Virus record (IMG/VR): IMGVR_UViG_3300032046_000018 | Span: 6,985 to 70,984 of that record | DNA: 64,000 bases | DNA from: a virus | Strand: one strand, 5' to 3' | Shown: piece by piece, positions 823 to 31,690 of the stretch | Numbering within the stretch: position 1 is the stretch's first letter | Layout: each line of letters starts with the position of its first letter | The notes under the pieces: generated by a model | Seen by the model: the letters and a program-made list of their open reading frames with translations, nothing else | What the model was told of the DNA's origin: nothing | Database searches by the model: none | Program-made: the position numbers and the translations under genes

Positions 823-2105
823 TGATGCCACAGCCGAAATCAAGCGAAAAGGCATTCTCCAATCCCGCTACGCCTCGTAGCGTCGACACACCAACACAAG
901 CGCCGGTCGATGACACTGCATCGAGAATAGAGGATGCACGTGCCAGGCCCACCGCCTTCAAGGAATACGAGAAGGGAAAGGGGACCGGTCTCGTGATTGC
1001 CATCATTTCTCTTGGGAAAGGCAAGAAGACCGTCTTCTCCTGGCTCCCCTGTTACATGAACCTGGATTTCAAGGGCTCCATGGGACCTAAGACATATGAA
1101 ACACTGCACACTGGACAACTCCCGGAGGTCGAGCAGGTATGTGCGGTCGATACGGAGGAATCCATCAAGCGGGACATGGACCACGGATATCTTGGCGAGA
1201 TAACGAAGGATTTCAGGAAAAACCACAAGATACACATCGAATCGGCACCCCTCATTCGTACCCGAGAGAAGAGCAAGGATGGGGAGATCATCAAGGTTGA
1301 TAGGGACTTCGACGCCGAGAAGATGCGGGAGAACTTCGAGGCCGCAGTATGGCAGGCTGCAGAACGGTACAAGGGAAACACGCTTCTCATTCTCGACTCT
1401 TTTAGCGACTACCGTGACATGATCACGGATGAGCAGGACGACATGGCTGGAAAGACAGTCGTCAAGAAATACGGCAAGAAGAAGGGTGTGGAGGATGACG
1501 AGGAGACTGGCACCGACCGGCGGTTCTACCGGTATCGAAACAAGTGGTGGACCAATGTACTGATGAAGCTGCGCACCACCGAATGCTGGGTCGTCGAGAC
1601 CTTCAAACTCGAGGTGCGGGAACCAGAATGGCAGTGGAAGGATATAAAGGTCCGTGTTGGTGCCGACCCGAAGAACCCGAATAGCTATGTCATGCACAGC
1701 ATCAAGCTCCCGGAGACGTATCCCGTGATGATCAGCAAGACGGACTACCGGATCGACCAGGGGTACACGCTGCGCCAAGTTTATGACATGAAAACGGGCA
1801 CGTTCGTGGACAAGATACGGACGGACTGGTATCGACATCCACACAGCACCATGCCGTATCTCAAGATTCCCCAGGAACAGCGGGATTCACTCGAGGAGAA
1901 ATGCTTCCTTGACTATCCACAGTACGATCGGATGGCGTTCACGTATCTCATCGAGGACATGGCACCGTCGATACTACAGAACAGCGGAAAGACAACATGG
2001 GGGAAATATGAAGGCGCTCAATATGCGGACGATGAAAAACAAGAAGCGGTGATTGAGAATGTCAAAGAAAGCAAACCAGCAGCCACACAAAGAAGAAGGA
2101 AGTAA
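819..2105 (+). CDS. RecA-like/AAA_24-type ATPase (putative recombinase)
   Basis: Degenerate Walker A (IISLGKGKKT), AVDTE strand, Walker B LLILDSFS. Confidence 0.65.
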   Translation: MMMPQPKSSEKAFSNPATPRSVDTPTQAPVDDTASRIEDARARPTAFKEYEKGKGTGLVIAIISLGKGKKTVFSWLPCYMNLDFKGSMGPKTYETLHTGQLPEVEQVCAVDTEESIKRDMDHGYLGEITKDFRKNHKIHIESAPLIRTREKSKDGEIIKVDRDFDAEKMRENFEAAVWQAAERYKGNTLLILDSFSDYRDMITDEQDDMAGKTVVKKYGKKKGVEDDEETGTDRRFYRYRNKWWTNVLMKLRTTECWVVETFKLEVREPEWQWKDIKVRVGADPKNPNSYVMHSIKLPETYPVMISKTDYRIDQGYTLRQVYDMKTGTFVDKIRTDWYRHPHSTMPYLKIPQEQRDSLEEKCFLDYPQYDRMAFTYLIEDMAPSILQNSGKTTWGKYEGAQYADDEKQEAVIENVKESKPAATQRRRK

Positions 2106-3132
2106 ACCGGCTGACGAGACGCCGAAGGAAGCACCTGTCGAGGAGAAGCCTGCGGCAGTGAGGCCTGTTGATGCGAACGTCGCCGAGGTCCTGGTGAACC
2201 GGGAAGCGCTCAAGCGATTCGTTGAAGACGTGCGATGCAAGGGTATTTCCGAGGTGAGCGATAAGGAGAAGGTGACGCAGGCCGAGCTCTTCGAGAACTT
2301 CCTACTGGAAGCAAAGAAGGGGCAGGGAGCAATCGTCACCGCGACGGATACACATATCAATCTGGTGATAGCACAACACCTCCTCAAGGAGGGAGATGAA
2401 CTCAAGGTCGTGAACGAGGGACGGATTCCCGTCACGAACATAGCCGATTGTCTCACCGCAATAACGCGTGTTGGTGGCGACAAGAAGGGGCGGAACATTC
2501 AACTCATCTACCCGGATGAGGAGAACAAGGTGCGGCTCACCAGGATTGGCACGGAGACGGCGTGGTCGTTCATCACCGAAGGCGAGGAGAAACTCACGAG
2601 CCTGGAGAAGACCGATAGCCTGCGGCACAAGTGGTCCCCGGAGAAGGATTGCGTCATCTCGTATTCCAAGGATAACATTGAAATCCCGTGGCCAGTCAAG
2701 GTCAAGGTCATCCCGAGCATGCTTCGTGAATTGGCGAAGGACGTGAGCAGTTTCGTCAAGCAGGGCGTTACCAATCTCAAGCTCGCCGATGGAAAGATGC
2801 TCTTCTTCTTAGGTGACGCGACCGCGTCGAGGAAGGGCTCGAGAGACTTGCAACCCATCACCAGGAAAAAACTGGAAGTGGAGATGGCCAAGGAGGAGCG
2901 GAAAGGAGTGGAGTGGAATGTCGTGAAATCCACGAAATGGGTGGACGCGGCAGACGACGCTACGCCCATAGAAGCGAGATACTATCACGGGCTGTATGCG
3001 GTGATAGGGAACATCGACGACAGCTTCACGACCGAGATTCACTTCTGCAACATTCTCGGGGGATGGATGATGTGGGTGCACGCTGAAAATGCAACCGCCC
3101 GCATGGACTACATGATTCCATACGATAAGTAG
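2059..3132 (+). CDS. pcn: DNA sliding clamp, PCNA-like
   Basis: PCNA-like pattern in both halves (LKRFVEDV, IVTATDTHINLVIAQHL, VKVKVIPSMLRELAKDV, EARYYHGL, RMDYMIP). GGTGA upstream of ATG 2059. Confidence 0.75.
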   Translation: MSKKANQQPHKEEGSKPADETPKEAPVEEKPAAVRPVDANVAEVLVNREALKRFVEDVRCKGISEVSDKEKVTQAELFENFLLEAKKGQGAIVTATDTHINLVIAQHLLKEGDELKVVNEGRIPVTNIADCLTAITRVGGDKKGRNIQLIYPDEENKVRLTRIGTETAWSFITEGEEKLTSLEKTDSLRHKWSPEKDCVISYSKDNIEIPWPVKVKVIPSMLRELAKDVSSFVKQGVTNLKLADGKMLFFLGDATASRKGSRDLQPITRKKLEVEMAKEERKGVEWNVVKSTKWVDAADDATPIEARYYHGLYAVIGNIDDSFTTEIHFCNILGGWMMWVHAENATARMDYMIPYDK

Positions 3133-3141
3133 ATAACACGC

Positions 3142-3246
3142 GGAGCCCTGGCGGTAGGTGGTTAGACCGCCATCAAACCATGGACACTTGATGGGGATAC
3201 GCCAATAGCCGAATCCCCTAACGCGGTGAAAGCCGCGGGTGTTCCA
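3142..3246 (+). ncRNA. Aberrant tRNA-like cloverleaf RNA
   Basis: Acceptor GGAGCCC/GG(T)GTTCC, D arm GCGGT-AGGTGGTTAG-ACCGC, arm CATCAA/TTGATG with 11-nt loop, long variable arm GGGAT/ATCCC, T arm CGCGG-TGAAAG-CCGCG. Confidence 0.5.
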
Positions 3247-3254
3247 CAAACCAT

Positions 3255-3411
3255 AGCAACGTGGTGTAGCCAGACCAACACGCCAGACTCATAACCGCGA
3301 GGGCCACGAATGAGATTGCGATTTGGCAACTTATATCAATAATGCCTAGGAATCGTGACCGGGCTTCGGGAAATCTGGAGGTCGGAGGTTCAAATCCTCC
3401 CGTTGCTACCA
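3255..3411 (+). tRNA. tRNA-Met(CAT), initiator-like scaffold, 79-nt intron at 37/38 (3294-3372), encoded CCA
   Basis: Acceptor AGCAACG/CGTTGCT, D stem GTGT/ACAC, anticodon stem CCAGA/TCTGG, CAT at 3290-3292, T arm GGAGG-TTCAAAT-CCTCC, ACCA end. Relaxed bulge-helix motif at the 3' splice site. Confidence 0.9.
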
Positions 3412-3434
3412 ATTATAACAAAGGTGAAGTAAAA

Positions 3435-3935
3435 ATGGCAGATAAACACGAAAACGAGCAAGAATTTGCAGATGGCATTCCGATGTCAACGGCAATTGCC
3501 ACGCTAATGGACCACATCAACGCTCTGGAGAGCTGGAGGAACGCCGTTATTGAATGCCTTAGCACGCACAAGAAGCGCATGGACGAGTTCATGGGTTTGG
3601 CTGACATTTTAAAAGTGTATGGCCACTTGATTAGTGATGTCGGCAAGGAGGAAGTTAAAAACCTGCTTCTCGAGACAAAGGTCATGGCGCTGGAGGAGCT
3701 CCTTGATTCATACGTCAATGTATTAAGGCCTGCGATCCACGATCACCCGAACTGGTCGACTAATCCCAGCGATTATCTATCGGCGACACTCCCAGGAATA
3801 ATTGACCGGGCGGCGACTCTGGATGACCTGCTCAAGGATATCAAGGACCCCGAGGTAGATAATGGGGAAATCATCTTGAAAATGAATGGCCTCGCGGACA
3901 AGTTTGGACCGAAGAAGGAGGGTGAAAGTAAGTGA
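3435..3935 (+). CDS. Hypothetical coiled-coil protein
   Basis: AGGTGA before ATG 3435; overlaps the next gene. Confidence 0.7.
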   Translation: MADKHENEQEFADGIPMSTAIATLMDHINALESWRNAVIECLSTHKKRMDEFMGLADILKVYGHLISDVGKEEVKNLLLETKVMALEELLDSYVNVLRPAIHDHPNWSTNPSDYLSATLPGIIDRAATLDDLLKDIKDPEVDNGEIILKMNGLADKFGPKKEGESK

Positions 3936-4546
3936 GCGAGCCATACAAGTGCACGAAATGCGGTCGCACGCACGTGAAGGGAAAGATATATGACGATCAC
4001 AGGGAATTCGCCGAGCGAAAGCCGACCGAGATACCCGTGAAAGGGCAGGGATCAATGGGGATTGGCGATGACTTCAATGGAGTGAAGGCTGCGCCGAAAC
4101 CAATAGAGATGGTGAAGGTCGAGAGCACGCCCAATCCAATGGACCGGTTAAAGTATGTCCATGACATGAAGGGCGCCAATCTCAACGAACTCGTGCAAGG
4201 GTTAAAAGTTTCCACGGTGAAGGAGAATGGAAAGTCGGCGAAAGTCGAGATATCAGGCGAGAAGAAGGGCGGATTCTGGGACACTCACGCACTCGATGCA
4301 TTCCTGCTCAAGGCCACCAGGAGCCAGGTAAAACTCATGCTGGACGAGAATCCACAGGTGGATAGGGGAGGCGTGATGTACAAGGTCAACTGGCGAGCGA
4401 ACGCTTGGGAAAGCAAGGATGGCGTGAGAATACCATTCAATGTCGAGGAGATGCTCAAGTATGGTGCCATGATAGCAATGGCCAACGGGAAACATCCAGG
4501 GATGCTCGTGAAGCGGAGAAGCAAGAAAGCTCTTCGAGGTGAATGA
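3932..4546 (+). CDS. Hypothetical protein with N-terminal C2H2-like Zn finger
   Basis: CTKCGRTH...H motif; coupled in the operon. Confidence 0.7.
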   Translation: MSEPYKCTKCGRTHVKGKIYDDHREFAERKPTEIPVKGQGSMGIGDDFNGVKAAPKPIEMVKVESTPNPMDRLKYVHDMKGANLNELVQGLKVSTVKENGKSAKVEISGEKKGGFWDTHALDAFLLKATRSQVKLMLDENPQVDRGGVMYKVNWRANAWESKDGVRIPFNVEEMLKYGAMIAMANGKHPGMLVKRRSKKALRGE

Positions 4547-4547
4547 C

Positions 4548-4703
4548 ATGGCAATAAAATTCAAGATATTTGGGGGCTCGCCAATCGAGCTCGAGAAGGA
4601 CCTTAACGAGTTCGTCGCTAAGATAGGAGATTCTAATTTCATCGACATCAAGGTCGTCGAGATAGCGTCATACTTGCATTGCGTGGTGATATATGAAGCA
4701 TGA
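4548..4703 (+). CDS. Small hypothetical protein (51 aa, not in ORF track)
   Basis: GAGGTGA upstream; MAIKFKIFGG...IYEA fills the gap and ends in an ATGA overlap. Confidence 0.65.
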   Translation: MAIKFKIFGGSPIELEKDLNEFVAKIGDSNFIDIKVVEIASYLHCVVIYEA

Positions 4704-5134
4704 GGTGCACGGGGCTCGCCATCTCCAGAACATTAGGTCCTGGCATCGAGGGAACGTCCACCGGCGTGTGGCTGCGTGATTTCTTTCGCAAGTTGAAGAC
4801 TGCAGTCATCGTGGTCCCGTGGAGCAGCAAGGAGATAGTTGAAATGCAGTGTAAATACGCCCCCGGTGCCAGGCTCATCCCGATCCTCCCGAACATGACT
4901 AAATATCGAAAAAAAGCCGAAGCGTACCGGGAGCGGGCAGTGGAATTGTGCGAGGCCGCGCAAGACATGCATGCAATTCACGATTTAGACGATTGGACGA
5001 AATCAGCGGTGATGATAGCGGATATTTTTTTTAACGTGCACCCTGGATACGAACTCGACACCAAGCTTGTCGTTGATGGCGAGATCGTTGATGTATCACT
5101 CGAGGAAATGAAAAAAAGGAGCGGGTATAAATGA
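4700..5134 (+). CDS. Hypothetical protein
   Basis: ATGA overlaps at both ends. Confidence 0.65.
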   Translation: MRCTGLAISRTLGPGIEGTSTGVWLRDFFRKLKTAVIVVPWSSKEIVEMQCKYAPGARLIPILPNMTKYRKKAEAYRERAVELCEAAQDMHAIHDLDDWTKSAVMIADIFFNVHPGYELDTKLVVDGEIVDVSLEEMKKRSGYK

Positions 5135-8100
5135 GTGACTGGAGAACTATTTGTCTCATCAACAAGAACCACGAGACCATGGACAAGGATGGCACGGCCG
5201 TCCCGGTCTGGATCGTCGCTGGCAAGGAGAAGGACGGAACGCATCACGTTCTCAGGATACATGGCGAGCGGGTGCGCCCGTCCTTCGGCGTCCCCTATGA
5301 GGAGTTCTGGAAGGTGATGGACGACCCCAGGATAACAGGGTTTCACCGTGGCCCAGATTCACCATTTGGGGAGCCAGTGATGGAGGTGTACTCGAAACTT
5401 CCAAAGGATGTTGGCACAGGGCAAAGCGCCATTAGGAATTTCGTGAGCCATTCATACCAGGGCGACATCCGATTCGAGGACAAGGTAGGAATCGACCTTC
5501 TCATCTGGGAAGGTTACATGATGTTCGATTTCTCAATGGTGGAGCAATATGGATACCTCGACGACAAGTTCGTGCAGCCCCCGCCTGAGGGATACGAGAA
5601 ATTCTACGTCAACAAGCACAAGGTGTATTTTGACTCCGAATGGACCATGAAGGCCTTGATTGACGATGTCGGGCGCCTGCGCTTCCGCCAACGTCTCAAG
5701 AAGAAGGAGGATGAGGAGGAGCGATATGTCAAGAGCAAGGTCATCACCATTTCATTTCTCCAGTCGTGGGACTGGACATTCCACGTGTTCACGTGGCACC
5801 CACGAGTAAAGGAGAAATGCACGTACCAGGAAAGATATATTAGTCGCATCTCGGAGGACGCTCGCCAGAAAATAAAAGTAATGCCAATGGAGTTCCATGT
5901 TGAGGTGCACGCGTGCGAAAATGAAAAGCAGTTATTAACGGGCATGGTCGATTATCTCTCAGGCACGCAAATTGACGCGCTCATCGGATTTAACGCGTTC
6001 AGCGGGATACATGGACTTGGAGATAGCAAGAAGTGGCAGAATGGGTTTGACATGCCCTGGTTGTACAGGCACTGCATGGTCAAGCCTAACAAGGACTACC
6101 AGACCTGGGTACCGAGAGACCCTGACGTGAATCTCCATCGGATTAGCCCGGCTGGTGTCACGTACTTTAGAGATGACTTTGGCAAGGAGGAGGTCGTCAT
6201 CAAGATGTTGACGTGCCTGGACCTCTATCACATGATGGCCTTCTTTGAGTATCACAAGAAGGATAAATTGAAAAACGAGAAGCTCGACACGTACATGGAC
6301 AGGTACCTGGGAATAGGGAAGGTAAAACACCCGCAATACAGGTGGGTGTGGGACATGTGGGAGAAGGAGCCCCCATTAGAGAGGCTCTACAACATGGGTG
6401 ACACCGAGGGAACGGCTGGCGTCGAGCAAATATTCAAGCCTAGCGAGGACGCATTTAACAGGGCCACGTTCTCGGGGGCGAGCTGGGATGCGGGGATGGC
6501 AGCGAGCAGGTTGCACGACCTCGTGAACCTTCACCTTTACAAGGATTTATATTATCTCGATACGAAAACATATGGAGATAATAAATATGAACGGATTTGG
6601 TTGTGGAATGGATTTACTGACGAAAAGGTCGGGGGATTTAACAAGGAAGTCAATAGAGGGATGAAACGGCTTGTTTTTGGGATGGACTTCAACAAGTTCT
6701 ACCCGATGGCCGGGATAGGGTCGAATTGCGCGCCAGAGACGTTCGTCAACATGGCAGGGCTCAGGTTGACGGGGAAAGGGCTCATGGTCGTCGATCGGCG
6801 GCCGTGCCTCATCAAGGAGGTAGAGGATTGGCCTGAATTTGTCAAGGAATGTAAACGCGAGCAGGCGGCCATGGGTGATGACGTGAGCATGGCATTGAAG
6901 AGCTTGCAATCCATCATCTCGAATAAACTGATCGGTTGGAAGGAGACCCTTTATAATTGGAGCGACCTGGCAATAACCCCGGCGGGGATATTCAGGAAGG
7001 ACATCATCGCCAGGAATGTATTGGCGTTCAAGGCGATGCTGGTCGAGAGGAAGAAGCTACAGAAGGTAGCGGACGCCATCCTCGAAAAGGTAAAAGACAT
7101 GGATGATTTCGACTATGTCGTGGCTGATGGACGGCAGTTCTCCTACAAGCAATACATGAATGGCAGGTTCGGCACGCAGGGAATGGATTGGGATAGGATG
7201 TACTTCTTGCCACTGTTCAACACGTACACGCTCGTCTGCCAGGAAATAATCAAGGAATGCATCGACTACGTCGAGAATGTCCTCGGGTATCCAGTTGATT
7301 TGGCGAGCACTGATTCGATGTATGCGGAGCACAAGCGCCCGATTGAATGGATTTGGAAGGAGATAGTAAACAAGGACGGCACCGTGAAGAAGCTGTGTTA
7401 CAGCAAGGAAGCGGAGGAGGTCGTGGAGAAGGTGCAGGCGCACGCCCAGGAATTTGCCAAGCGCGAGTTCAACATCGACGATCCGGGCGTGTTCACGCTC
7501 GAATGCGACATGATCTGCAAGACCATGTTCATCGAGAACATGCGCTTCTACATCAAGAACGTGATGTGGGCCAAGGGGAAGCTGATTGACCCGCCACAAC
7601 TGGAGTTCAAGGGAATGAAGGTGGTGCGCCGGGAAGTTGCAGCCGTTACTGAGGAGGTGCAAGAGAGACTTGGGAAACTCTACATGAATGATGGCACCGC
7701 TGACGATATCATGGTAGAGGTTATGAAGCTCCACGAGGAGTTTATTGCCATGCCACTCACTGAGGTCTGCAAGACACTCCCGGTCAACAAGCCATATCGT
7801 GATTATGACGAGAAAAGCGAGCAGTACAAGGCGTTTGCATTGGCAGATGAATTCTTCGACGTGGACATAGCCGTCGGTGATAGATTCTTCATCGCACCCC
7901 TAAAGTACTGTCCGAAGATGATTCACGGTAAAAAAGTGCCAGATAATCTTGGAGATAAGGTGGCGTTTGACGAGGACTCGATACAACGAATGCTCGACGC
8001 CGGTGTCCAGGTGGACATGCACGAGCTCGAGGATTCTGGAGTGGCGTCCCCGGCGGATGAGATACTCGAAGTCTTTGGTACTTCGTATTGGAAGCAAGTA

Positions 8101-8139
8101 AACAAGAGCAGGACAGCAAATACACATGGTGACTTTTAA
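5131..8139 (+). CDS. polB: Family B DNA polymerase with 3'-5' exonuclease
   Basis: Exo motifs YFDSE, GFN...FDMPWL, YNMGD; polymerase motifs DFNKFYP, KQYMNGRFG, ASTDS; KGMKVVRRE. Confidence 0.95.
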   Translation: MSDWRTICLINKNHETMDKDGTAVPVWIVAGKEKDGTHHVLRIHGERVRPSFGVPYEEFWKVMDDPRITGFHRGPDSPFGEPVMEVYSKLPKDVGTGQSAIRNFVSHSYQGDIRFEDKVGIDLLIWEGYMMFDFSMVEQYGYLDDKFVQPPPEGYEKFYVNKHKVYFDSEWTMKALIDDVGRLRFRQRLKKKEDEEERYVKSKVITISFLQSWDWTFHVFTWHPRVKEKCTYQERYISRISEDARQKIKVMPMEFHVEVHACENEKQLLTGMVDYLSGTQIDALIGFNAFSGIHGLGDSKKWQNGFDMPWLYRHCMVKPNKDYQTWVPRDPDVNLHRISPAGVTYFRDDFGKEEVVIKMLTCLDLYHMMAFFEYHKKDKLKNEKLDTYMDRYLGIGKVKHPQYRWVWDMWEKEPPLERLYNMGDTEGTAGVEQIFKPSEDAFNRATFSGASWDAGMAASRLHDLVNLHLYKDLYYLDTKTYGDNKYERIWLWNGFTDEKVGGFNKEVNRGMKRLVFGMDFNKFYPMAGIGSNCAPETFVNMAGLRLTGKGLMVVDRRPCLIKEVEDWPEFVKECKREQAAMGDDVSMALKSLQSIISNKLIGWKETLYNWSDLAITPAGIFRKDIIARNVLAFKAMLVERKKLQKVADAILEKVKDMDDFDYVVADGRQFSYKQYMNGRFGTQGMDWDRMYFLPLFNTYTLVCQEIIKECIDYVENVLGYPVDLASTDSMYAEHKRPIEWIWKEIVNKDGTVKKLCYSKEAEEVVEKVQAHAQEFAKREFNIDDPGVFTLECDMICKTMFIENMRFYIKNVMWAKGKLIDPPQLEFKGMKVVRREVAAVTEEVQERLGKLYMNDGTADDIMVEVMKLHEEFIAMPLTEVCKTLPVNKPYRDYDEKSEQYKAFALADEFFDVDIAVGDRFFIAPLKYCPKMIHGKKVPDNLGDKVAFDEDSIQRMLDAGVQVDMHELEDSGVASPADEILEVFGTSYWKQVNKSRTANTHGDF

Positions 8140-8140
8140 A

Positions 8141-9044: not shown

Positions 9045-9250
9045 TACAATCATTCAATAACTTCTGCCCGAAATATGCAATTGGAGACTATGGACCCGCT
9101 AAATGTAATGGCCCAAGCATGGAAAACGAGGACGGTACTTTCACGTGCACGAAATGTGGATATACAAACAGTACACCTATCCTTTCTACTAATTGGAAGC
9201 GAGAGGGTGTAAAATGGGTGAAAAAAGAGAATGCCAAGCTGGAAAAATAG
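9041..9250 (+). CDS. Small Zn-finger protein
   Basis: C...C...CTKC; starts with the same MIQSF as the methyltransferase. Confidence 0.55.
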   Translation: MIQSFNNFCPKYAIGDYGPAKCNGPSMENEDGTFTCTKCGYTNSTPILSTNWKREGVKWVKKENAKLEK

Positions 9251-9719
9251 AGGAGAGTTAAAACCCTGGAGTGATGAGGAAATACGAATCATCAATGAGA
9301 ATTATGATAAAATGACCTGGGGTGAAATAGGAGCATTGCTTGGCAGGACGGCTATTTCCGTTAGACAAAGGGCATTGAGACTCGGCCTGAAGCATGGATT
9401 AAAAGGGAGAATGAATCCAGCATATAAGAATGGTAATCTTGTTGATAGATATGTCAAACTATATGGAAAGTATGAATGCCCTTATGCTGATGAAAAGGGT
9501 AATGTTAATGAGCATGTGTATGTATGGTGGCTTAATCATGGCGCCACAATAGAAGATGGTGAAGTTATACATCACAAGGACTTGAATCCTTTAAACAATA
9601 ACATCGAGAATCTTGTAAAAATGACAAATGAGGAGCACTGTAGAATGCACTCTATAGAAAATAGCAAGCAAAAATTCCGTGACGCTTCCGGGAAATTTGT
9701 GAGGTTGGGGGTGAACTAG
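9231..9719 (+). CDS. HNH homing endonuclease with N-terminal Myb/HTH-like domain
   Basis: WSDEE...LGRTAISVRQRA HTH; EH...IHHKDLNPLNNNIENL...EH HNH motif; C-terminal RDASGKFV. Confidence 0.9.
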   Translation: MPSWKNRGELKPWSDEEIRIINENYDKMTWGEIGALLGRTAISVRQRALRLGLKHGLKGRMNPAYKNGNLVDRYVKLYGKYECPYADEKGNVNEHVYVWWLNHGATIEDGEVIHHKDLNPLNNNIENLVKMTNEEHCRMHSIENSKQKFRDASGKFVRLGVN

Positions 9720-9720
9720 A

Positions 9721-10564
9721 ATGATACAATCATTCGGCTGGTTTCGGTGGTAAAGCTTGGCTCGTGCCAACGCTAATCAAGCTAACACCATCACATCTCG
9801 TGAGCATAGAAGCGTTTGGTGGAGCAGCGTGGTACACGCTTAACAAACCCAAGTCACACGCGGAGGTTATAAATGACGTGAACGACTTGCTCGTCAATCT
9901 CTGGCTCACGTTACAATCTGACATCGAGAGATTCAAGGAACGCAATACATACATCATAGACGCTCGAAAACTCTACATCGACTACGAGAAGAGTTACAAG
10001 GAGAATAAATGGGAGAACTGCGATAACGTGGAGAAGGCGTTTCGATTCTACTATCTCATCACCCATAGTTTCTCGTTCATGCTCCACGGATTCCACGCGG
10101 TAAGATTTGACAAGGCGCCAAGCCAGCAAGGCAGTTACCTCCACAAGATCGAAGCAATCGACAACATCTACGAGCGCATCAAGGAGATACAATTCCGCAA
10201 CGAAAACGTGTTTGACATGCTCCCCAGGTACGACAAGGAGGGAGCATTCATGTACCTGGACCCTCCATACGTCCAGGGAGGGTATGCGTATGCCGAGATG
10301 CTCGGGGGGAAGCCATGGACTGAGGAGGATAAGTACAATCTGAGAGAAATGATCTGGGGTTTCAAGAATGCGAAAATCTTGCTGAGCGTCGACAATGGAG
10401 AGTACTACATGACGGATGGGTGGACGATGCGGGTCATGGACAAGGGCGGGCGCTTGACACGGGCGGGAGCAACCCCGAACCGGGAATGCCTCGTGATGAA
10501 CTACGAGCCACCAAAGCGCCAGTTCAAGGAAACGAATGCTGCGGACACGGGTGGTGATTTCTGA
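9721..10564 (+). CDS. D12/Dam-family N6-adenine DNA methyltransferase; needs a +1 frameshift at 9742-9745
   Basis: MIQSFGWF in frame 0 joins GGKAW in the +1 frame (motif X); EAFGGAA, INDVN and catalytic YLDPPY motifs. Confidence 0.85.
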
Positions 10565-10565: not shown

Positions 10566-10721
10566 GTGTGGTGCGTGCATTGCAAATCAAAGAGCTTCCA
10601 CCAGCATGGCACTGGAGGATACGTGTTCAAGTGCGACTCGTGTGGCAAGCTCTTCACGAAGACGGAACCAGAATTCAAAGGGCACGAGACGAATGCAGCA
10701 AATACATTTGGTGATTTCTAA
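10566..10721 (+). CDS. Small Zn-ribbon protein with GDF tail
   Basis: CVHC...CDSC; GTG 10566 is 8 nt after GGTGA (start uncertain); ends ETNAANTFGDF. Confidence 0.7.
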   Translation: MWCVHCKSKSFHQHGTGGYVFKCDSCGKLFTKTEPEFKGHETNAANTFGDF

Positions 10722-11398
10722 TGGTGCTGATGATAGCAGCGATTGAAAAGTGTGCCATCGCGGAGTTTGATGGCGCCATAACATGCGTGATATTCTTGCA
10801 GGGCTGCGACATGAAGTGCTCCTACTGCCAGAATAGCGCTCTTATCAAGCCCTACAGCGAGAAGGCCATGGAGGCCACTGCAGAAGAAATAATCGAGGAA
10901 ATACCATGGGACGAGATCGACGCCATCTCCATCACTGGTGGCGAGCCTCTCTGGTCAGCATTAGGTACCCAAGAAGGAGGAGCGGATTTAATGCGGCTTC
11001 TTATGCACGCCAGGGACCGGCGAAAGAAGACGAACATCGACACGAATGGAAACTTTGCCAACGAGGAGAAGATGCGCCTGCTCGAGCACGTGGCTCCCTA
11101 CCTTACTTCTATTAGCGTTGACATTAAATATGGAGCACCGCCGTACATCAACCAGATGGCGATGTCACTCCGCAAAGCCATGCTTTTCTCTCAGGCACGA
11201 TTTCGGATGGTGTTGTTCAAGGGAAGGTGGCAGCCGAAGAATTGCATCGAAAGCGGGATATCAGCACTGCTCCTCAACAATATCAGGCTGATAACTGGCG
11301 TGAGAAACGAGAACGTGGCGCCGATGATGACGGATGAGGAGTGCAAGGAAATGAAAGAGGCGTGGCACAAGCTCGGGATAGAGTTGGTGATAAAATGA
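10721..11398 (+). CDS. nrdG: Anaerobic RNR-activating radical SAM enzyme
   Basis: IFLQGCDMKCSYCQN (CxxxCxxC), ITGGEP, IDTNG, VDIK; NrdD is present in the window. Confidence 0.8.
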   Translation: MVLMIAAIEKCAIAEFDGAITCVIFLQGCDMKCSYCQNSALIKPYSEKAMEATAEEIIEEIPWDEIDAISITGGEPLWSALGTQEGGADLMRLLMHARDRRKKTNIDTNGNFANEEKMRLLEHVAPYLTSISVDIKYGAPPYINQMAMSLRKAMLFSQARFRMVLFKGRWQPKNCIESGISALLLNNIRLITGVRNENVAPMMTDEECKEMKEAWHKLGIELVIK

Positions 11399-11964
11399 AT
11401 GATGCGGTGAAGAAGGCCAAGGAAAGATATCCTGGGGAAACATGCTTGCACGGCACTGATGATTTCATCATCATGTTCGCCATATATGGAGTTGGAAACA
11501 AGAAGGCGTATTTCGAGGATGTTAAGGCTGCATCCATTGATGGAATCAAGGTGCTGTTCGAGGAGAATGTGGGGGTCAAGCGCCCGGAAGCCAAGATAAA
11601 TAGCGGCGATTATTTCACGTGGCACGGGTTCGCGTATCTCATGTATCCCCTTGCAGACATGGACTTGATAGGCCCAGTCGTGAAGGCGAGCATCGTTGAA
11701 TACACGATCAAGCAAAAGAAGGATGAATCAGAAGACGAATTTAGCGAGATTTATGATACCTTCTACAAGAGCGAGGAGGAGAAGGCGTTCTTCAGCGATC
11801 CAACTGCCAGGACACTTGTCCTCGAGGACAACAGGGGAGATTGCCTGTGCATAGCGACGTGTGGCAAGGCGGAAGGACGAAGGAAATATGTAGAAGATTT
11901 CGAGGCTAACATGGACCTCAGTTCATTAATGGTAAAAACGGCAGACCCGTTTGGTGATTTCTAA
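11395..11964 (+). CDS. Hypothetical protein with GDF tail
   Basis: GGTGA before ATG 11395; ends KTADPFGDF. Confidence 0.7.
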   Translation: MNDAVKKAKERYPGETCLHGTDDFIIMFAIYGVGNKKAYFEDVKAASIDGIKVLFEENVGVKRPEAKINSGDYFTWHGFAYLMYPLADMDLIGPVVKASIVEYTIKQKKDESEDEFSEIYDTFYKSEEEKAFFSDPTARTLVLEDNRGDCLCIATCGKAEGRRKYVEDFEANMDLSSLMVKTADPFGDF

Positions 11965-14696: not shown

Positions 14697-14891
14697 ATGC
14701 AGAGCGAGAAAACGTTCAAGAGTAGCAGGGAGTGCCGATTCTGCGACCACCCTCCATTCAAGACCAAGAAGGCGCGGGATAAACACGAGCAGTTTGCAGA
14801 AGGTGTTGATCACGGCTTCGACAAGAAGGGCAAGCGAATACGGAGGGACGACTACACCGAAACAGTAGAGATTGTTGGTGATGGACGCTGA
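14697..14891 (+). CDS. Small C2H2-like Zn-finger protein
   Basis: CRFC..PF....ARDKHE...H; AGGTGG SD. Confidence 0.55.
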   Translation: MQSEKTFKSSRECRFCDHPPFKTKKARDKHEQFAEGVDHGFDKKGKRIRRDDYTETVEIVGDGR

Positions 14892-15963
14892 ATCATTATA
14901 TTGGGAGACCCTCATACCCCAGCGACCAGTCCGGCGGAAATGCTTCGCTGGATGGAACGCTGCACTCCGGGATGCAAAGTGGTGGATGGCCGCTGGAGCC
15001 GAAGCATATATATCAAACTACGGCTACCGGGAACTTGTTGACGACCCAGGATCGTACGGATACGACCGGTCGATGGTCCCCGACTACGCCACAGCAGTTA
15101 TCAATTGTATATTTATTGATATTGACTACACGCTCGTCATAGACGGCGAGAATGAAATCATCGAATATAGGCCGGATATAAACATGGATGTCGTGAAGAT
15201 GGATGACTGGTGCGCCGCGAATGGCGACCTCAAGCGAAAGTGGCGATTCACGGGCGGAGGCTTTCACGGCCTCATCAAGGCCGAAGGTCCCGCCTCGAAG
15301 CTCGATGACGCTGTCCGGTTCATCGCCAGCGAGACCCATGCCAGGATTGACCCAGGAAGCGAGACGACTGCCACGTGCAAGCGGGTCATTAATTCGGTCA
15401 ATCGCAAGCATGGCAATCACGTCATCCCGGTATCCATTGACGAAATACGTTCAAGTACCCAAGATAAATTGCTACAACTGGCGTCGATGCCCAGGGATGA
15501 CGAGTTCTCTCTTGGGCACGGCACCTGGTATTTTGAAGGGGTGAAATCTTCAATGAAGAAGCAAATGGATATAATTGGGAAGTACAGCAAGAAGATCATT
15601 GCTGACAGCAAGGATGCAACACTGGAGAAGTATGGGCTCTCGTGGAATGACGATTTCTGCCCTGCACTCCAGCATTTGATAATGAAACAAAATCCAGGAA
15701 ACGACGATAGGAGATTTGTCATAAAGTATCTGCGGGACGTGCTAAAAATCCCATTCGTTGACCTGGTAGACGAGACGAAGACGGTGATAAATCTCTTCAT
15801 TAACATCATGGAAAACAAGGCCAAGGCGAAACACGCGGCGGTGAAGGAAAAACAATGTATAATGATTTACAGACGGAAACGACGGTTCCATCCATACGAA
15901 CTGCGATTGGAAGGTTTGTGCCCGGAGGGATGTGCTGAATGCCTGGAGAAGAGGAATGCGTGA
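14881..15963 (+). CDS. Archaeo-eukaryotic primase, PriS catalytic domain fused to a PriL/PriX-like C-terminal domain
   Basis: FIDID, FTGGGFH and RID motifs; C-terminal FCPAL...RRFVIKYL...CPEGCAEC. Confidence 0.8.
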   Translation: MDAESLYWETLIPQRPVRRKCFAGWNAALRDAKWWMAAGAEAYISNYGYRELVDDPGSYGYDRSMVPDYATAVINCIFIDIDYTLVIDGENEIIEYRPDINMDVVKMDDWCAANGDLKRKWRFTGGGFHGLIKAEGPASKLDDAVRFIASETHARIDPGSETTATCKRVINSVNRKHGNHVIPVSIDEIRSSTQDKLLQLASMPRDDEFSLGHGTWYFEGVKSSMKKQMDIIGKYSKKIIADSKDATLEKYGLSWNDDFCPALQHLIMKQNPGNDDRRFVIKYLRDVLKIPFVDLVDETKTVINLFINIMENKAKAKHAAVKEKQCIMIYRRKRRFHPYELRLEGLCPEGCAECLEKRNA

Positions 15964-23470: not shown

Positions 23471-23530
23471 GCGTGTGGTGGCTCACGAAGCCACCCGAAA
23501 AGAAGGATGCTGAAACAAGGCGCGTTGAAG

Positions 23531-25475: not shown

Positions 25476-26035
25476 TGATCGACGAGAACGAGTTCAATGC
25501 CATCGAGGGATGGCTTACACTGCCAGAGGGAAAGAAGCTTGCCGAGCTTGCCGAGGACGTGGGAATGTTCTCCATCATCGTGGAGATAGGTTCGTGGAAA
25601 GGCAAGAGCACGTACTGCCTCTCCAGAGGAGTTGGGGAGAATGGTATCGTGTACGCCATCGACCATTTCAAGGGGAGCAAGGAACATGGTGATGTGTGGA
25701 CGTTCCCCCAATTCCATGTGAACATGGAGCGGTACAAATGCAATAATGTCGTTCCCATCGTTGGCAAGTCAACCGAGATACGATGGCTCATCAAGGATGA
25801 TTTCGTGGACCTGCTGTTCATCGACGGGAGCCACGAGTACGCTGATGTTGCAAATGACTATGCCATGTATTCCACCGTGGTTAAGAAGGGTGGTATTATA
25901 TGTCTTCACGACACGGGGCCTAATGGATGGGAAGGCCCGAACAAGCTCCTCGACAAGATAATGGCACAGGACAGCGAGAAGGTCGTGAACATGGTTCTCG
26001 TGGATTCGCTGACAGTACTCAGGGTGGTTGCATGA
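25472..26035 (+). CDS. Class I SAM methyltransferase (Methyltransf_24-like)
   Basis: GWL, VEIGSWKGKS, AIDHF, LFIDGSHEY, GG...HD. Confidence 0.9.
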   Translation: MMIDENEFNAIEGWLTLPEGKKLAELAEDVGMFSIIVEIGSWKGKSTYCLSRGVGENGIVYAIDHFKGSKEHGDVWTFPQFHVNMERYKCNNVVPIVGKSTEIRWLIKDDFVDLLFIDGSHEYADVANDYAMYSTVVKKGGIICLHDTGPNGWEGPNKLLDKIMAQDSEKVVNMVLVDSLTVLRVVA

Positions 26036-27042: not shown

Positions 27043-28217
27043 GAATAGCACTTGTCCACACCGATGGCCCGACGGAGACCAGGATCAACCACGAGAGTGG
27101 CATGTCAGCCTTGGTGGTAGAACTGGTCAGGAGTGGTCACTCCCTCGATATTATTTCTCTTTTACAGGTAGACCCGGTCAAGGCGGCAAACCTGGTAAAT
27201 GAGAAGTATGACTGCTGGATGACGAGCGCCCATGGAAGTGACTACATTGGAAAATTCCTGGTTAACGTCAAGAAGCCATACATTTTCTACCCACACGATT
27301 TGTACAACGAAAAGGACGACTACACGCGCTTGTGGGATTATCTCCTGCCAAATGTCATCGCATGCGCCACGGCGCCACAACTCGCTGCCGCATCGAAAGT
27401 GCGGTCCGACGCCAGGCCTATCCAATGGTTCAAGAAGGAGATATATGAAGGAATCACCCCCACGCAAGAGGGGTACAACATGTACACGAGAAGGGTGCTA
27501 ACTCCTGAGGAGAAGCGTAGGAACATTCTCCTTGTCGTCGAAAGAGGCAACTTGAAACCTGGTTCAACAATGACCACCCCCGAGGGAATAGTGTATGTGC
27601 ACCCGGACTACGAGGTGATAACCCGTGATCTCGAGAGACATGGATATAGGGTGTTCAAGAAGCAATTCACGTTCAAGACAAGCCACTTGTTCCATGGAGG
27701 ATCATGGGACCCTGCTTTCGCTGACTCCTTCGGCCTGGCCATGCTCCTGCATTGGTGTGACTTTGTTCTCTCGTATGAGTCGAGCATCCTCGTCGAGGCT
27801 ATCCTCGTTGGCAAGATACCCATGCAATACGTGCCCGCGGGTAGTAGCAAGGAGCTGATAAAATTCGTCCCGGATACTCCAACACATGATCTGGTAAACG
27901 AGTTCATGTCCACGCATCTTACCGCATACCAGGACAACAGGGTATTCAAATCGGTGATGCCAGCGTGCTGGATACCGGGAGTAACAGAAAAGATAGCAGC
28001 ACCTACTTTATATGACAAGCTAGAAGCCCTTGAGAATGATGATGTCTACAAGAAGGTGTCAAGGAGACTCCTTGATTACTGGGCTCTCCCTGATAATGCA
28101 CCACCATTCTCCATGGGCATGGCAAAAGCAATCGAAGATATTGAAGGCGCCGAAATGAATGGCACGGTACCGGATAACGTGAGGTCGATATTCTATGGCG
28201 GAGAAAAACAAGTATAA
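27039..28217 (+). CDS. Putative GT-B fold glycan-modifying transferase
   Basis: YPHD, CDFVLSYESSILVEAILVGK, resembling CDP-glycerol/capsule biosynthesis transferases; located in the glycan cluster. Confidence 0.5.
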   Translation: MRIALVHTDGPTETRINHESGMSALVVELVRSGHSLDIISLLQVDPVKAANLVNEKYDCWMTSAHGSDYIGKFLVNVKKPYIFYPHDLYNEKDDYTRLWDYLLPNVIACATAPQLAAASKVRSDARPIQWFKKEIYEGITPTQEGYNMYTRRVLTPEEKRRNILLVVERGNLKPGSTMTTPEGIVYVHPDYEVITRDLERHGYRVFKKQFTFKTSHLFHGGSWDPAFADSFGLAMLLHWCDFVLSYESSILVEAILVGKIPMQYVPAGSSKELIKFVPDTPTHDLVNEFMSTHLTAYQDNRVFKSVMPACWIPGVTEKIAAPTLYDKLEALENDDVYKKVSRRLLDYWALPDNAPPFSMGMAKAIEDIEGAEMNGTVPDNVRSIFYGGEKQV

Positions 28218-28476
28218 TGGCAATGCACTGAACTGCCGGGTAGATACCGCTCTCCTGAAACTCAAGAAGGATGGCGAGACTAACCGGGAGTTCGTGGAGC
28301 GAGCCCTTATCTGTCTACGTGATGGGGCTAAGAAAGGTACCGAAGATGAATTGCAATATAGCATCTTGTTAAAACTTATCAAAGCGTTTATTGACAAGAG
28401 ACTCGTGGTTAAAACCATCACCGAGCAAGAAGGCGATGTGCTGGTGAAATTGATCGAGAAGGAAGGATTAGCATGA
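28195..28476 (+). CDS. RHH-like DNA-binding protein
   Basis: LNCRVD...LKKDGETNREFVERAL. Confidence 0.5.
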   Translation: MAEKNKYNGNALNCRVDTALLKLKKDGETNREFVERALICLRDGAKKGTEDELQYSILLKLIKAFIDKRLVVKTITEQEGDVLVKLIEKEGLA

Positions 28477-28793
28477 CACCGACACCTAAAGGATTCGACT
28501 TCGGTAAATTCACTCCCGTGGCCCAACCATCACCGGTCCAGGATAATGAAGAGACCGAGGAGGTAGAAGCCGCCGATGAAGCCCCCCGGAAAGCACCAAT
28601 GGGGAAGCGGAGCACTGGAGTTGATTTGAAAACAATGCTACGGTCCGTATCACTACTGTCCGAGGCTCTACCCTATCTCCGAAAGTTCGCAGATTACAAG
28701 ATGAACTCTAAAAAGAAGGGCACGAAGCAAGGTGAGGAATGCAAGCAATTGGTCGAAAAGATAGACGTATTCATCGCATCAAGCGATTTATAA
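28473..28793 (+). CDS. Hypothetical protein
   Basis: ATGA overlap. Confidence 0.6.
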   Translation: MTPTPKGFDFGKFTPVAQPSPVQDNEETEEVEAADEAPRKAPMGKRSTGVDLKTMLRSVSLLSEALPYLRKFADYKMNSKKKGTKQGEECKQLVEKIDVFIASSDL

Positions 28794-28844
28794 ATGCACG
28801 ATGACAGGGACATTTTGCCCTTGTTTATTTTACCTGGTGATACA

Positions 28845-30761
28845 ATGGTAGTTGAACTTCAACAAATCTCACTTCCAGGCATGGACAGCGAACCCGATAC
28901 ACTTGACGAGTTCATGTCCATCATGGATAACCTTGATCCTTTTGTAAAGCATAACCTCGGCTTGGACGCCGAGGAACCTCTTAAATGGCTGCGCCGATAT
29001 GATGCTGCTGCAACAGTCGGCGAGATGACGAGTAGCCCGAACGCAAGTGTCGGCAATCAAAAGAACTCGAGAAACAGGGCGTCAGAAATGGCGGCGCCCT
29101 GGCTCAAGATGAGGGCTTTTGATGAAATGCATTCATGGGGCACCATGGCGTTCGGAAACGAGTTTTCGTTAGACCCTATTTTTAATGGCTTGGTGTACAT
29201 TCACAAGGCCTCGAAACTGGATCGCCCGTATTGTGTCGGCGCGTCCGTCCTGGACATCATGCAGGATGGCCGCCCATATGCGGACATTCCAGGAATGAAG
29301 CCGAAACATTTCTCCGCGTTCATGGGCCAGGTATTCGAGTACGTCCTCAACATGGTAGGAGATTGGAATGGTGCCATCGCGGTTTCTGATTGGATGCCAG
29401 GAATGGCTTACTACGTGCAGAAGGAAGGTATCCCGATGAGTGCTGTGCGCCAGGAGTGGCAATCCATCGTCCACAAATTTCATAACAAGTGGCGCGAGGA
29501 TGGCGACCCTCCATTCACGAACACGAGCTTCAATTCCCCTGCGGTGATGCAGCAAATATTCAAGACAGCCGTGTTTCCAGATGGCTCCAACATTCTCGAT
29601 TACATGGACACCATCATGGAAGTACAAGACACGATTCTCCAGTTCATGCACGAAGGTGACCCGTCGAAGGCAGGTATCCAGTACAAGTTCCCGGTGATGA
29701 CAGCTAACTTCACGCCCACCGATGTCGGCACTGATTGGTGGAAGCGAGTTGCCCGGTTGAACCACAACGGGTTCCTCAACATCTGCCACGCCGCCATGTT
29801 CTCCAGTTGCTGCCGCGTCCTCTCTGATTATGAAACCATGCTCAAGATGAAGCAGTACTCTAACGGTGGCGGCGGAATAAAGACAGGTTCCCACTTGGTT
29901 GCTGCACTCAATCTCCCAGGAATAGCAATTCACGCAAACTATAACTACACCAAATTCATGGAACTTCTCGATGATCTCATTGACCACTGCGTCAGGTATC
30001 TCTACATCCACAAACACTTCATCTTAGGTAAGAGAGCTCGTAGCGGATACAATCCATTCCTTGCTAAGTTCAGGGATGAGGCAGGAGATATTCTTGATGT
30101 AGGTCCGTGGCTCCATCTCAACATGTTCTTCTCGACAATAGGAGTTCATGGCATTCCAGAGATGGTGGAATACCTCGGAGAGGACATCGTTGAAAAGGAT
30201 GGCGTGAAACTCGCATCCAGCATCCTCTCACACATCGTGAAGCGTGCCAATGATTATAGCAAGCACTTCACCGAGAATGTTGGTGACGATCATATCATCA
30301 TGGTATTCAATGTCGAACAGATACCTGCTGAGTCGGCCAGCCATACGATGGCTGCTTTTAATGGCGATGATATCTACAGCAACCAGTTCGTCCCGCTCGA
30401 TAGACCTGTTGACATCTGGAAACGTGTAGAGATAGAAGGCGAACTCTCGAAAGTACTCACTGGAGGGAGCATGACATTCCTGCATCTCGGCACGATGATG
30501 GACCAGGACCAGTCGGAGATTTTTCACGAGCGCGTGATGAAGAAGAGTAATTTCAACCTCAATCAATTCTGCGTGGACTACGGGTTCTCGCTGTGCAAGC
30601 CGTGTAATAGAAAAGAAGTAGGCCGCGTGGAGAGATGCTCGTGTGGGAGGCTCATGCGACCATACACGCGGGTTGTTGGATACATGGTACCAGAGGCAAG
30701 TATAAATGAGCCACGTGCCATTGGAGACGTGCAAAAAAGGTTCGGATACACGCAGTGGTGA
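28845..30761 (+). CDS. nrdD: Class III anaerobic ribonucleoside-triphosphate reductase
   Basis: YIH..., YCVG, FPVMT, SCCR, EQIPAES, C-terminal CxxC..CxC and glycyl-radical RVVGY. GGTGA before ATG 28845. Confidence 0.93.
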   Translation: MVVELQQISLPGMDSEPDTLDEFMSIMDNLDPFVKHNLGLDAEEPLKWLRRYDAAATVGEMTSSPNASVGNQKNSRNRASEMAAPWLKMRAFDEMHSWGTMAFGNEFSLDPIFNGLVYIHKASKLDRPYCVGASVLDIMQDGRPYADIPGMKPKHFSAFMGQVFEYVLNMVGDWNGAIAVSDWMPGMAYYVQKEGIPMSAVRQEWQSIVHKFHNKWREDGDPPFTNTSFNSPAVMQQIFKTAVFPDGSNILDYMDTIMEVQDTILQFMHEGDPSKAGIQYKFPVMTANFTPTDVGTDWWKRVARLNHNGFLNICHAAMFSSCCRVLSDYETMLKMKQYSNGGGGIKTGSHLVAALNLPGIAIHANYNYTKFMELLDDLIDHCVRYLYIHKHFILGKRARSGYNPFLAKFRDEAGDILDVGPWLHLNMFFSTIGVHGIPEMVEYLGEDIVEKDGVKLASSILSHIVKRANDYSKHFTENVGDDHIIMVFNVEQIPAESASHTMAAFNGDDIYSNQFVPLDRPVDIWKRVEIEGELSKVLTGGSMTFLHLGTMMDQDQSEIFHERVMKKSNFNLNQFCVDYGFSLCKPCNRKEVGRVERCSCGRLMRPYTRVVGYMVPEASINEPRAIGDVQKRFGYTQW

Positions 30762-30774
30762 CCTAAATTTGACG

Positions 30775-31212
30775 ATGAATAACGAGGATAATGTAGAGGT
30801 CGATGATGACGCGATATTACAGGAAATCGCGTTGGATGAGCCCAAGGAAGGCCCTCAAAAAGGCGAGGGATTGAAGCCCGAGATACCCATACGGGGTCTT
30901 ATCGACGAGTCGACATTCCCGGAAATCGTGCTTCATGGTGCGGAGGCTATATTCCCCGATGATTTTGAATATGTCCTGTGCATCCCGAAGCAGAATAAAT
31001 ATGAGAAGCCCAAAGTCGTGGATGGTGACAACCCAAATCTTGCTCGCCCGGAGAATGTAGTGCCGCAGGATTGGCAAGCGGGCGTGAAGTTTTTCATCAA
31101 CGGTGTTCAGAAGACGTTCCGCAATCTCGTGATCACCATCGACGACAAGATGGAAATTGACGCCATGAACCGGGTGATCCCGAAGTTCGTGAAGGTGGAC
31201 ATCTATGGCTGA
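30775..31212 (+). CDS. Hypothetical protein
   Basis: Acidic N-terminus; continues the operon. Confidence 0.6.
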   Translation: MNNEDNVEVDDDAILQEIALDEPKEGPQKGEGLKPEIPIRGLIDESTFPEIVLHGAEAIFPDDFEYVLCIPKQNKYEKPKVVDGDNPNLARPENVVPQDWQAGVKFFINGVQKTFRNLVITIDDKMEIDAMNRVIPKFVKVDIYG

Positions 31213-31690
31213 GGAGCAGGAATACATTTCAGACGCGGAGATTCCCACGGCCGAGGGAGGTGCCATATTCGCTGGCGCCGACAAGATCAAGGGATTGAGA
31301 CATTTTGACAAGGTCCCGACCGTCAAGATTAACAAATGCCCCTGGTGCGGGGGTCTCGACAGCATTGTTAATAACCAGTGCCAGATGCCTGGGTGTGGCA
31401 AACCCGTCATCTACAAAGGCCCACGACCAAGGGAGGAACCCGCGCTCTCTGAACAAGAGATAGCAATCATCGTGGCGCAGAAGCAAGGAGAGATGCAAAA
31501 AATCCTTTCCATGGGTTCCCTCCCTGGTGACTTGAGAAGCATGCGAGCCGAGATCAACAAGCGCAAGGACGTGATACGTGGAAAGGCAGATATCATCGAG
31601 GATGAAAAACCTGTACCTAAGAGAGAGATGAAGATTCGCAGGAGCTCGTCAATAAGCGTGGGCCCTGGCGATCCTTTCAAGGATTTCTAA
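31205..31690 (+). CDS. Zn-ribbon protein with DPFKDF tail
   Basis: CPWC...CQMPGC; ends PGDPFKDF. Confidence 0.7.
   Translation: MAEEQEYISDAEIPTAEGGAIFAGADKIKGLRHFDKVPTVKINKCPWCGGLDSIVNNQCQMPGCGKPVIYKGPRPREEPALSEQEIAIIVAQKQGEMQKILSMGSLPGDLRSMRAEINKRKDVIRGKADIIEDEKPVPKREMKIRRSSSISVGPGDPFKDF

Follow-up and report, generated by a model that had tools for sequence, protein, structure and literature searches.

The replicative DNA polymerase, the clamp-loader large subunit, a DNA methyltransferase, and three small proteins of an uncultured, archaeal-type tailed virus were found to end in a common short peptide closing on Asp-Phe, and this ending is probably a non-canonical, Gln-less clamp-docking tail common to the viral clamp interactome. 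The stretch of DNA analyzed, hereafter the window, is 64,000 nt long and covers positions 6,985 to 70,984 of the IMG/VR record IMGVR_UViG_3300032046_000018, a single contig of 70,984 bp whose ~7 kb upstream of the window were also read. In the window, the plus-strand genes up to ~32.4 kb form the replication and nucleotide-metabolism side, which encodes a family B DNA polymerase (PolB), an HNH endonuclease, a D12/Dam-class methyltransferase, a radical-SAM protein, a PD-(D/E)XK nuclease, glycosyltransferases, and an anaerobic ribonucleotide reductase, and the minus-strand genes beyond form the structural side.

A sequence-only reading of the window had noted that five otherwise unrelated plus-strand proteins, namely PolB, the Dam-like methyltransferase, a 51-aa zinc-ribbon-like protein, a 189-aa protein without assigned function, and a 161-aa Cys-rich protein, share a [GK]DF ending, and all five C-termini were found at the stop codons it had quoted. 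A six-frame scan of the window for open reading frames (ORFs) of at least 40 aa that end in DF returned these five tails and one antisense ORF, which ends in NEWDF (stop at 15742, minus strand) inside the gene at 14872-15963 and was dropped as non-coding. A sixth DF ending was found just upstream of the window on a minus-strand, 380-aa AAA+ protein (..KKMNLDDF), which resembles the RFC large subunit of clamp loaders. Across the 70,984-bp contig, 6 of the 90 strand-consistent genes end in DF, compared with 0.30 expected from the DF dipeptide frequency of the same proteome (Poisson P = 7e-7), and DF endings occurred in only 1 of 333 antisense or wrong-frame ORFs. All six tails are on the replication side (6/58 genes), and none of the 31 structural-side genes ends in DF, in agreement with the earlier observation that virion proteins lack the tag.

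The carriers were confirmed to be unrelated outside the tail, since all-against-all BLASTP paired chiefly C-terminus with C-terminus. In detail, the best such pair was the methyltransferase with the 51-aa protein (E 0.012), followed by the 161-aa with the 189-aa protein (0.22), the 51-aa with the 189-aa protein (1.1), and PolB with the 51-aa protein (2.3); the only other pairs below E = 1 were two weak, internal ones (residues 15-31 of the methyltransferase with 979-995 of PolB, E 0.70; residues 94-177 of PolB with 33-142 of the 189-aa protein, E 0.78). All six copies sit at the protein end, and the linkers before the tails are of low complexity, being Lys-rich in the clamp loader.

The tail was then followed in related viruses. 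PolB alignment scans recovered one IMG/VR record and 14 metagenome loci as relatives, while a single-protein PolB scan of viral contigs recovered no relatives, nor did scans with P0026 and P0029, two remote relatives of the clamp, and a scan of genome contigs recovered neither a relative nor a provirus. The closest records in the phage collection searched were those of haloarchaeal tailed viruses, with 25% identity across one third of PolB. One relative, G001 (the same as L001/L019), is complete, at 88.6 kb with terminal repeats. Near-duplicate loci were counted once (L011 equals L001, L009 is close to L010, and L007 and L008 have one PolB tail). Before the tails were counted, a 221-aa opposite-strand ORF in L001 ending ..QVLDDF was dropped, as were, from the loci counts, short ORFs in the wrong frame or on the opposite strand that end in E/A plus W/F/Y.

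Related tails were kept in all four carrier families for which homologues could be compared. Twelve PolB homologues were found, at 39-100% identity, and 11/11 with a complete C-terminus keep a related tail, among them homologues at 39-70% identity (ANTHGEF, ADTFGEF, MNPFGDF, ADTTGEF, GDPFGEF, VDVDDF, FDPTAW, FDPHDF, FDPFAW, and YDPWEF); the twelfth, P0004, is a truncated ORF because its contig, L003, is a mirror image. L003 (7240 bases) is a perfect self-mirror in which the PolB fragment and its neighbors are present on both strands, pointing to an assembly artefact. For the clamp loader, the tail was present in 6/6 proteins, from this genome and five related loci (NLDDF, VDPFDF, STFGEF, DPFGDF, FDPFSF, and DIFGDF), and for the Dam-like methyltransferase in 5/5 distinct homologues (DTGGDF, DPWYF, ETTGEF, NPFEEF, and DPLQF). 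The 189-aa family, with homologues in L002, L004, and G001 (L019) that are 24-39% identical overall, has the tail in 4/4 members, and T-x-DPF(G)DF is its sole invariant block. By comparison, ten other families conserved across these loci, including the clamp, the neighbors of the RFC small subunit, the radical-SAM protein, and the nuclease, have no such tail. In G001, five D-P-[FW]-x-F-stop sites were found, at the ends of the RFC large subunit, PolB, the Dam-like methyltransferase, a second, CcrM-like methyltransferase (NCBIfam E = 9e-20), and the 189-aa family member, and the reversed pattern used as a control occurred 0 times on the forward and once on the reverse strand. The replicative polymerase and the clamp-loader large subunit of one and the same system carry the tail both here and in five related loci, and the tail of the clamp loader is the strongest single argument for clamp docking.

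The tail codons overlap with a Shine-Dalgarno (SD) sequence, as had been cautioned earlier, and the endings could be by-products of translational coupling, in which a GGTGA(T) SD, a spacer, a stop codon, and the next start together read as G-D-F-stop. The overlap was present in four of the five window copies, where GGTGA lies 12 nt before the stop codon and the next start codon is a few bases away, and likewise in 6/9 tails of L002, L004, and L013, at the same distance and with a start codon close behind. However, in-frame GGTGA was absent from the tail codons of 9/9 tails from the distant genomes (G001/L001/L019 and L010), most of the distant PolB tails cannot encode it, and in this genome the 161-aa protein and the clamp loader keep the peptide without it. 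No SD includes the [DN]-[PT]-aromatic residues further upstream or the Phe/Trp that ends the tail. Further, GGTGA occurs in all three frames of the gene 3′ ends of this genome (13/12/11), and in-frame copies at -12 also yield GDI and GEQ. The peptide is also conserved through synonymous change: the synonymous differences described earlier between the methyltransferase and 51-aa copies are present as quoted, and the claim built on them, that selection acts on the peptide, is borne out by relatives without GGTGA that still keep the tail peptide in four carrier families. Coupling as the sole origin of the endings is hardly credible, being effectively refuted by the distant tails without GGTGA and by the GDI and GEQ endings. 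Because distant relatives keep the tail without GGTGA, the overlap is judged to be genuine dual coding and not the cause of the tail. It probably accounts for the extra Gly in this clade, in which the Gly-Asp/Glu codons double as the ribosome-binding site for the gene that follows.

In total, 24 tails were compiled, 9 from G001/L001 and L010 and 15 from this genome, L002, L004, and L013, and two registers were seen. The tails of G001/L001 and L010 read T-[FYAV]-D-P-[FWLM]-x-[FW]-COOH, with -5 occupied by D or N and -4 by P in 9/9. Those of this genome, L002, L004, and L013 read [DN]-[PT]-[F>others]-G-[DE]-F-COOH, with G at -3 in 12/15, and D/E at -2 and F at -1 in 15/15. The two forms are best explained by an ancestral tail T-[FYAV]-[DN]-P-[FW]-x-[FW]-COOH, to which one Gly would have been added in this virus and its nearest kin. 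The consensus proposed in the sequence-only reading, [TAP]-[AG]-[ND]-[TP]-x-[GK]-D-F, fits the local form with the inserted Gly but does not cover the wider motif.

The tails of non-homologous proteins resemble each other more within than between genomes, as the last seven residues share on average 3.72 vs. 2.13 identities, respectively, and in 5000 permutations of the genome labels, made within families, this difference was never reached. Trp at -3 was found in three of the five G001 tails and in no others, and the six tails with Thr in place of Pro all come from this genome and L002. Such concerted variation is what a receptor shared by the tails would predict.

The tail was compared with two kinds of known clamp-binding peptide, the clamp-client tails of T4/RB69 and the C-terminal PIP boxes of archaea, which it most resembles in its proposed function. 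The RB69 DNA polymerase gp43 (NC_004928) ends ..KKASLFDMFDF, that is, F-D-x-F-D-F-COOH, which is in register with ..AFDPFSF, ..SVDPFDF, and ..TFDPHDF of the viruses studied here, and which the window copies match only if the inserted Gly is allowed. Similar to T4/RB69, an acidic-aromatic peptide stands at the extreme C-terminus of a family B polymerase in a tailed virus with its own clamp and loader, and proteins other than the polymerase carry this tail type too. The gp43 peptide has reportedly been co-crystallised with the gp45 clamp, and gp33 and gp55 of T4/RB69 use the gp45 clamp as well, as the annotation of the RB69 record also has it. In contrast to RB69, the clamp here is PCNA-like with long insertions (~310 aa core) and unrelated in sequence, the loader is of the RFC large/small type with a tailed large subunit, the clients include DNA methyltransferases, and the third-position Pro is fixed, with the extra Gly in this clade. 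In addition, RB69 gp55 ends ..SLDFLYEDDN, so that its motif is not at the very end.

The likeness to RB69 also bears on whether the tail could be a C-terminal turnover or sorting signal, such as a degron, a localisation tag, or a packaging tag, and not a clamp ligand. A short motif at a free C-terminus, carried by functionally diverse early proteins and absent from virion proteins, would suit such a signal, but this reading fails to explain the RB69 tail likeness, and equally why the tail is on PolB and the RFC large subunit and not on the RFC small subunit or the clamp. To our knowledge, no archaeal or phage degron or cargo tag has this form, and a sorting role is considered highly improbable.

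The textbook arrangement in archaea places a clamp-binding peptide at the C-terminus of both PolB and the RFC large subunit, and the PCNA-interacting peptide (PIP) box of archaea and eukaryotes is C-terminal on archaeal Fen1 and RNase HII as well. Like the PIP box, the tail has PolB and the RFC large subunit as core carriers, a flexible, often basic linker, and a PCNA-fold protein as the proposed receptor. However, the canonical consensus Q-x-x-[LIVM]-x-x-[FY]-[FYW] (in part after PMC3201878) was not matched, as none of the 24 compiled tails shows a Q where the consensus would have it, or two aromatics side by side. Unlike the PIP box, the tail has an acidic residue before its terminal aromatic, and its conserved D/N-P/T has no counterpart in the consensus. 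Because it fails the strict consensus, the tail is classed here not among the PIP boxes but as a probable clamp-docking tail of a non-canonical type. The earlier proposal of a Q-less PIP variant is supported by the missing Q and by the register shared with RB69 gp43, but not as regards membership of the strict PIP class. The PolB of the halovirus HSTV-2, a cultured distant relative, has a canonical-looking end (..QSGLGAFI). In the literature, as covered by listings and the openings of abstracts, no description of the D-P-aromatic/G-D-F tail or of this virus clade was found.

Recruitment of a DNA methyltransferase to newly made DNA by a clamp-binding peptide, as proposed here, has a parallel in eukaryotic DNMT1, a C5 maintenance methyltransferase whose PIP box is N-terminal. 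Unlike DNMT1, the enzymes here are Dam-like and CcrM-like N6 methyltransferases, and their tail is C-terminal and non-PIP.

The proposed receptor is the product of the gene at 2059-3132, which the sequence-only reading had taken for a divergent viral PCNA. An AlphaFold2 (AF2) model built from window position 2167 on with nine homologues gave a mean pLDDT (predicted local distance difference test score) of 85.4 and a pTM (predicted template modeling score) of 0.85, and it shows a predicted two-domain clamp fold. In the Foldseek search of this model against the PDB, the best 50 matches listed were all PCNA or sliding-clamp entries, with a probability of 1.00, a template modeling (TM) score on the target of 0.63-0.77, and 9-14% identity, and among the matches listed were entries of P. 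furiosus PCNA in complex with PolB and in complex with the PIP peptide of the RFC large subunit. Against BFVD, viral PCNAs and clamps were matched, among them a haloarchaeal tailed-virus protein recorded as uncharacterised. The PCNA assignment is upheld by the predicted fold but not by sequence profiles: the clamp had no match in Pfam, PHROGs, NCBIfam, or PDB phmmer and profile searches, and neither the clamp nor any of the 31 family members scanned matched PCNA profiles (Pfam PCNA_N/PCNA_C or equivalent). The clamp family has 26 representatives at E <= 0.001 among 1.84 billion entries.

The clamp gene, whose start ATG is preceded by GGTGAT, precedes PolB by three genes, and its synteny is kept in each of the five loci reaching that far (L001, L002, L004, L010, and L013). 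The C-terminus of the clamp (3108-3129) and of its homologues has a conserved Y-[ML]-[IV]-P-[YFP]-[DE]-K, which may resemble Y-L-A-P-K-I-E at the end of human PCNA, the segment that lines the PIP pocket there. Complex predictions of the clamp with the last 50 residues of PolB scored 0.66, 0.02, and 0.02, against a mark of 0.32 set on the median, in runs without controls, and are counted on neither side of the question of binding.

A different hub might serve as the receptor, either another replisome protein, such as a helicase, a primase, or a single-stranded DNA-binding (SSB)-like protein (for example, the 558-aa or 428-aa protein described below), or the host PCNA. In T7, acidic, Phe-terminated tails on gp2.5 (SSB) and gp4 (helicase) bind the T7 DNA polymerase, which there is the receptor, and the tail here is likewise acidic and aromatic-ended. 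Two large conserved proteins without an assigned family share the module, and the clamp of the host could also be bound. However, here it is the polymerase and the clamp loader that carry the tail, the pattern of clamp clients in archaea and T4/RB69. The tail is also in register with the clamp ligand of RB69 gp43, and a virus that codes its own clamp and loader is expected to load that clamp. Another hub is therefore judged unlikely.

From the carriers, the motif, and the predicted clamp fold, we infer the viral clamp as the receptor, together with the pocket used and the functional consequences that follow. In this mechanism, the tail would act as a docking motif, short, linear, and placed at a free C-terminus. 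With it, the viral PCNA-like clamp would be bound by PolB, the clamp-loader large subunit, the methyltransferase(s), and some of the small proteins, each clamp subunit taking one of them at a time in the hydrophobic pocket used by PIP boxes and by the T4/RB69 polymerase tail. Docked PolB would synthesize DNA processively, the docked RFC-like complex would load the clamp, the docked Dam-like enzyme would methylate new viral DNA at the fork, and the zinc-ribbon proteins and the 189-aa protein would be brought to replicating DNA.

A broader scheme can be drawn, in which the divergent clamp and the D-P-aromatic/G-D-F tails form a self-contained interactome without host-PCNA cross-talk that couples to the viral fork not only synthesis but also N6-adenine methylation of nascent DNA, for self-marking or anti-restriction, and zinc-ribbon-mediated late transcription of the T4 gp33/gp55 type. 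By analogy with T4 gp33/gp55, the zinc-ribbon proteins might act as transcription factors. In the part of the literature covered here, phage Mu is described as enlisting the beta clamp for late transcription (PMC12867686). As a whole, this scheme is possible but rather unlikely.

Several points weigh against clamp docking. The tail misfits the PIP consensus, lacking both the Q and a pair of adjacent aromatics and, in this genome, also Leu/Ile/Met at position 4. The clamp is recognisable by its predicted fold alone, its best PDB profile matches to sliding clamps being at E = 0.2-0.4. The tails of the window PolB (..NTHGDF) and of the clamp loader (..NLDDF) rank among the most degenerate copies, the readable related genomes and loci number six, with two pairs of loci near-duplicate, and with so few genomes the inserted Gly, which is part of the within-genome likeness, could equally stem from SD usage. 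The case is built on sequence, predicted fold, and the RB69 analogy, from which we infer physical binding. Further, co-evolution of the tail with the clamp and a "private" code orthogonal to the host PCNA, both proposed in the sequence-only reading, may hold but go beyond what the five or six related genomes that could be read show.

The positions of the carriers, their tails, and the neighboring replication genes are collected in Table 1.

Table 1. Tail carriers, the proposed receptor, and neighboring genes; positions refer to the window unless the contig is named.
Feature	Position	Strand	Remarks
PolB, family B DNA polymerase, 1002 aa	5131..8139	+	Pfam DNA_pol_B E = 4e-8; PHROG 262 E = 5e-42
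PolB tail RTANTHGDF	8110..8136	+	GGTGA at 8128-8132 doubles as SD for ATG 8141
D12-class (Dam-like) N6-adenine DNA methyltransferase	9764..10564	+	Pfam MethyltransfD12 E = 3e-15; gene 5′ end uncertain
Methyltransferase tail NAADTGGDF (full ending ..TNAADTGGDF)	10535-10561	+	
51-aa Cys4 zinc-ribbon-like protein, GTG start	10566..10721	+	zinc-ribbon profile matches weak
51-aa protein tail NAANTFGDF	10692-10718	+	
189-aa protein without assigned function	11395..11964	+	longest ORF starts at 11341
189-aa protein tail KTADPFGDF	11935-11961	+	
161-aa Cys-rich protein (CPWCGG..CQMPGCG)	31205..31690	+	
161-aa protein tail GPGDPFKDF	31661-31687	+	without GGTGA
RFC-large-like AAA+ protein, 380 aa, tail ..NLDDF	contig 4834-5976	minus	outside the window
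RFC-like clamp-loader operon (locus L016): RFC-large-like gene, 109-aa ORF, RFC-small-like gene	contig 3538-5976	minus	just upstream of the window
Divergent sliding clamp (predicted PCNA fold), 357 aa, ~45-aa low-complexity N-terminal extension	2059..3132	+	proposed tail receptor
Conserved 558-aa gene, 3′ part in the window	40..822 (contig 6130-7806)	+	no DF tail; between the clamp-loader genes and the clamp

The RFC-large-like protein matched PHROG 168 "clamp loader" (3e-17) and NF003229, RFC large subunit (3e-14), in the AAA+ core only. The adjacent 326-aa RFC-small-like gene product, which has no tail, matched NF001679 over its full length (E = 8e-61). Every score was below the NCBI equivalog cut-offs, and by their sequences the two loader subunits are best called RFC-like and not equivalogs.

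An HNH endonuclease gene (9231-9764) lies directly upstream of the methyltransferase gene, whose longest ORF begins with GTG at 9764. The methyltransferase tail and the 51-aa protein tail are alike in 10/12 residues of E-T-N-A-A-[DN]-T-x-G-D-F and identical in 27/36 nt. The 51-aa gene is not at the equivalent position in L002, and it may perhaps have gained its tail via a local duplication of the methyltransferase 3′ end. In L010, an analogous 52-aa Cys4 protein has the tail ..CTFNPMEW.

For the 189-aa protein, Pfam, PHROGs, and NCBIfam gave no credible match, and a protein homologue search returned only the protein itself. Its AF2 model was weak (pLDDT 64, and < 50 for tail residues 181-189), Foldseek with this model against the PDB returned nothing at E <= 0.001, and in the ESM Atlas sub-threshold leads (0.80) to palm-domain families were seen. 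The 161-aa protein matched no family in profile searches, including PHROGs and NCBIfam, its Atlas model was poor (pTM 0.19), and no homologue of it was found in G001.

Two further proteins of the replication module were noted for their C-termini. The 558-aa gene is syntenic in five related loci, and its product, for which profile searches found no family, ends like its homologues (L001, L002, L004, L010, and L013) in an acidic run followed by ..PDV, ..PEV, ..VRV, or ..MKV, with the terminal Val invariant. Possibly this ending is another C-terminal docking tail, distinct from the DF tail and perhaps SSB-like. The G001 homologue (L001 6328-7512) of the 428-aa protein (window 819-2105) ends ..KTDDDLW, which was left out of the tail count and could be a further degenerate tail, and the homologues in other loci have endings unlike it.

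T4/RB69 and the PIP boxes of archaea have already established the general principle of a clamp-binding peptide shared by several proteins. If the tails described here bind the viral clamp, viruses can rewrite the clamp-docking code, in this case as a Q-less, acidic, Phe-terminated peptide paired with a clamp beyond the reach of sequence profiles. DNA methyltransferases of two families would then be recruited to the fork by the polymerase's own tail type, and such recruitment would protect or mark viral DNA during its synthesis. The clamp and its peptides would also constitute a naturally orthogonal pair for tethering enzymes to DNA. Further, the tail would be a searchable "address label" for replisome clients such as the 189-aa family, and scanning for it would place small proteins without assigned function at their site of action.

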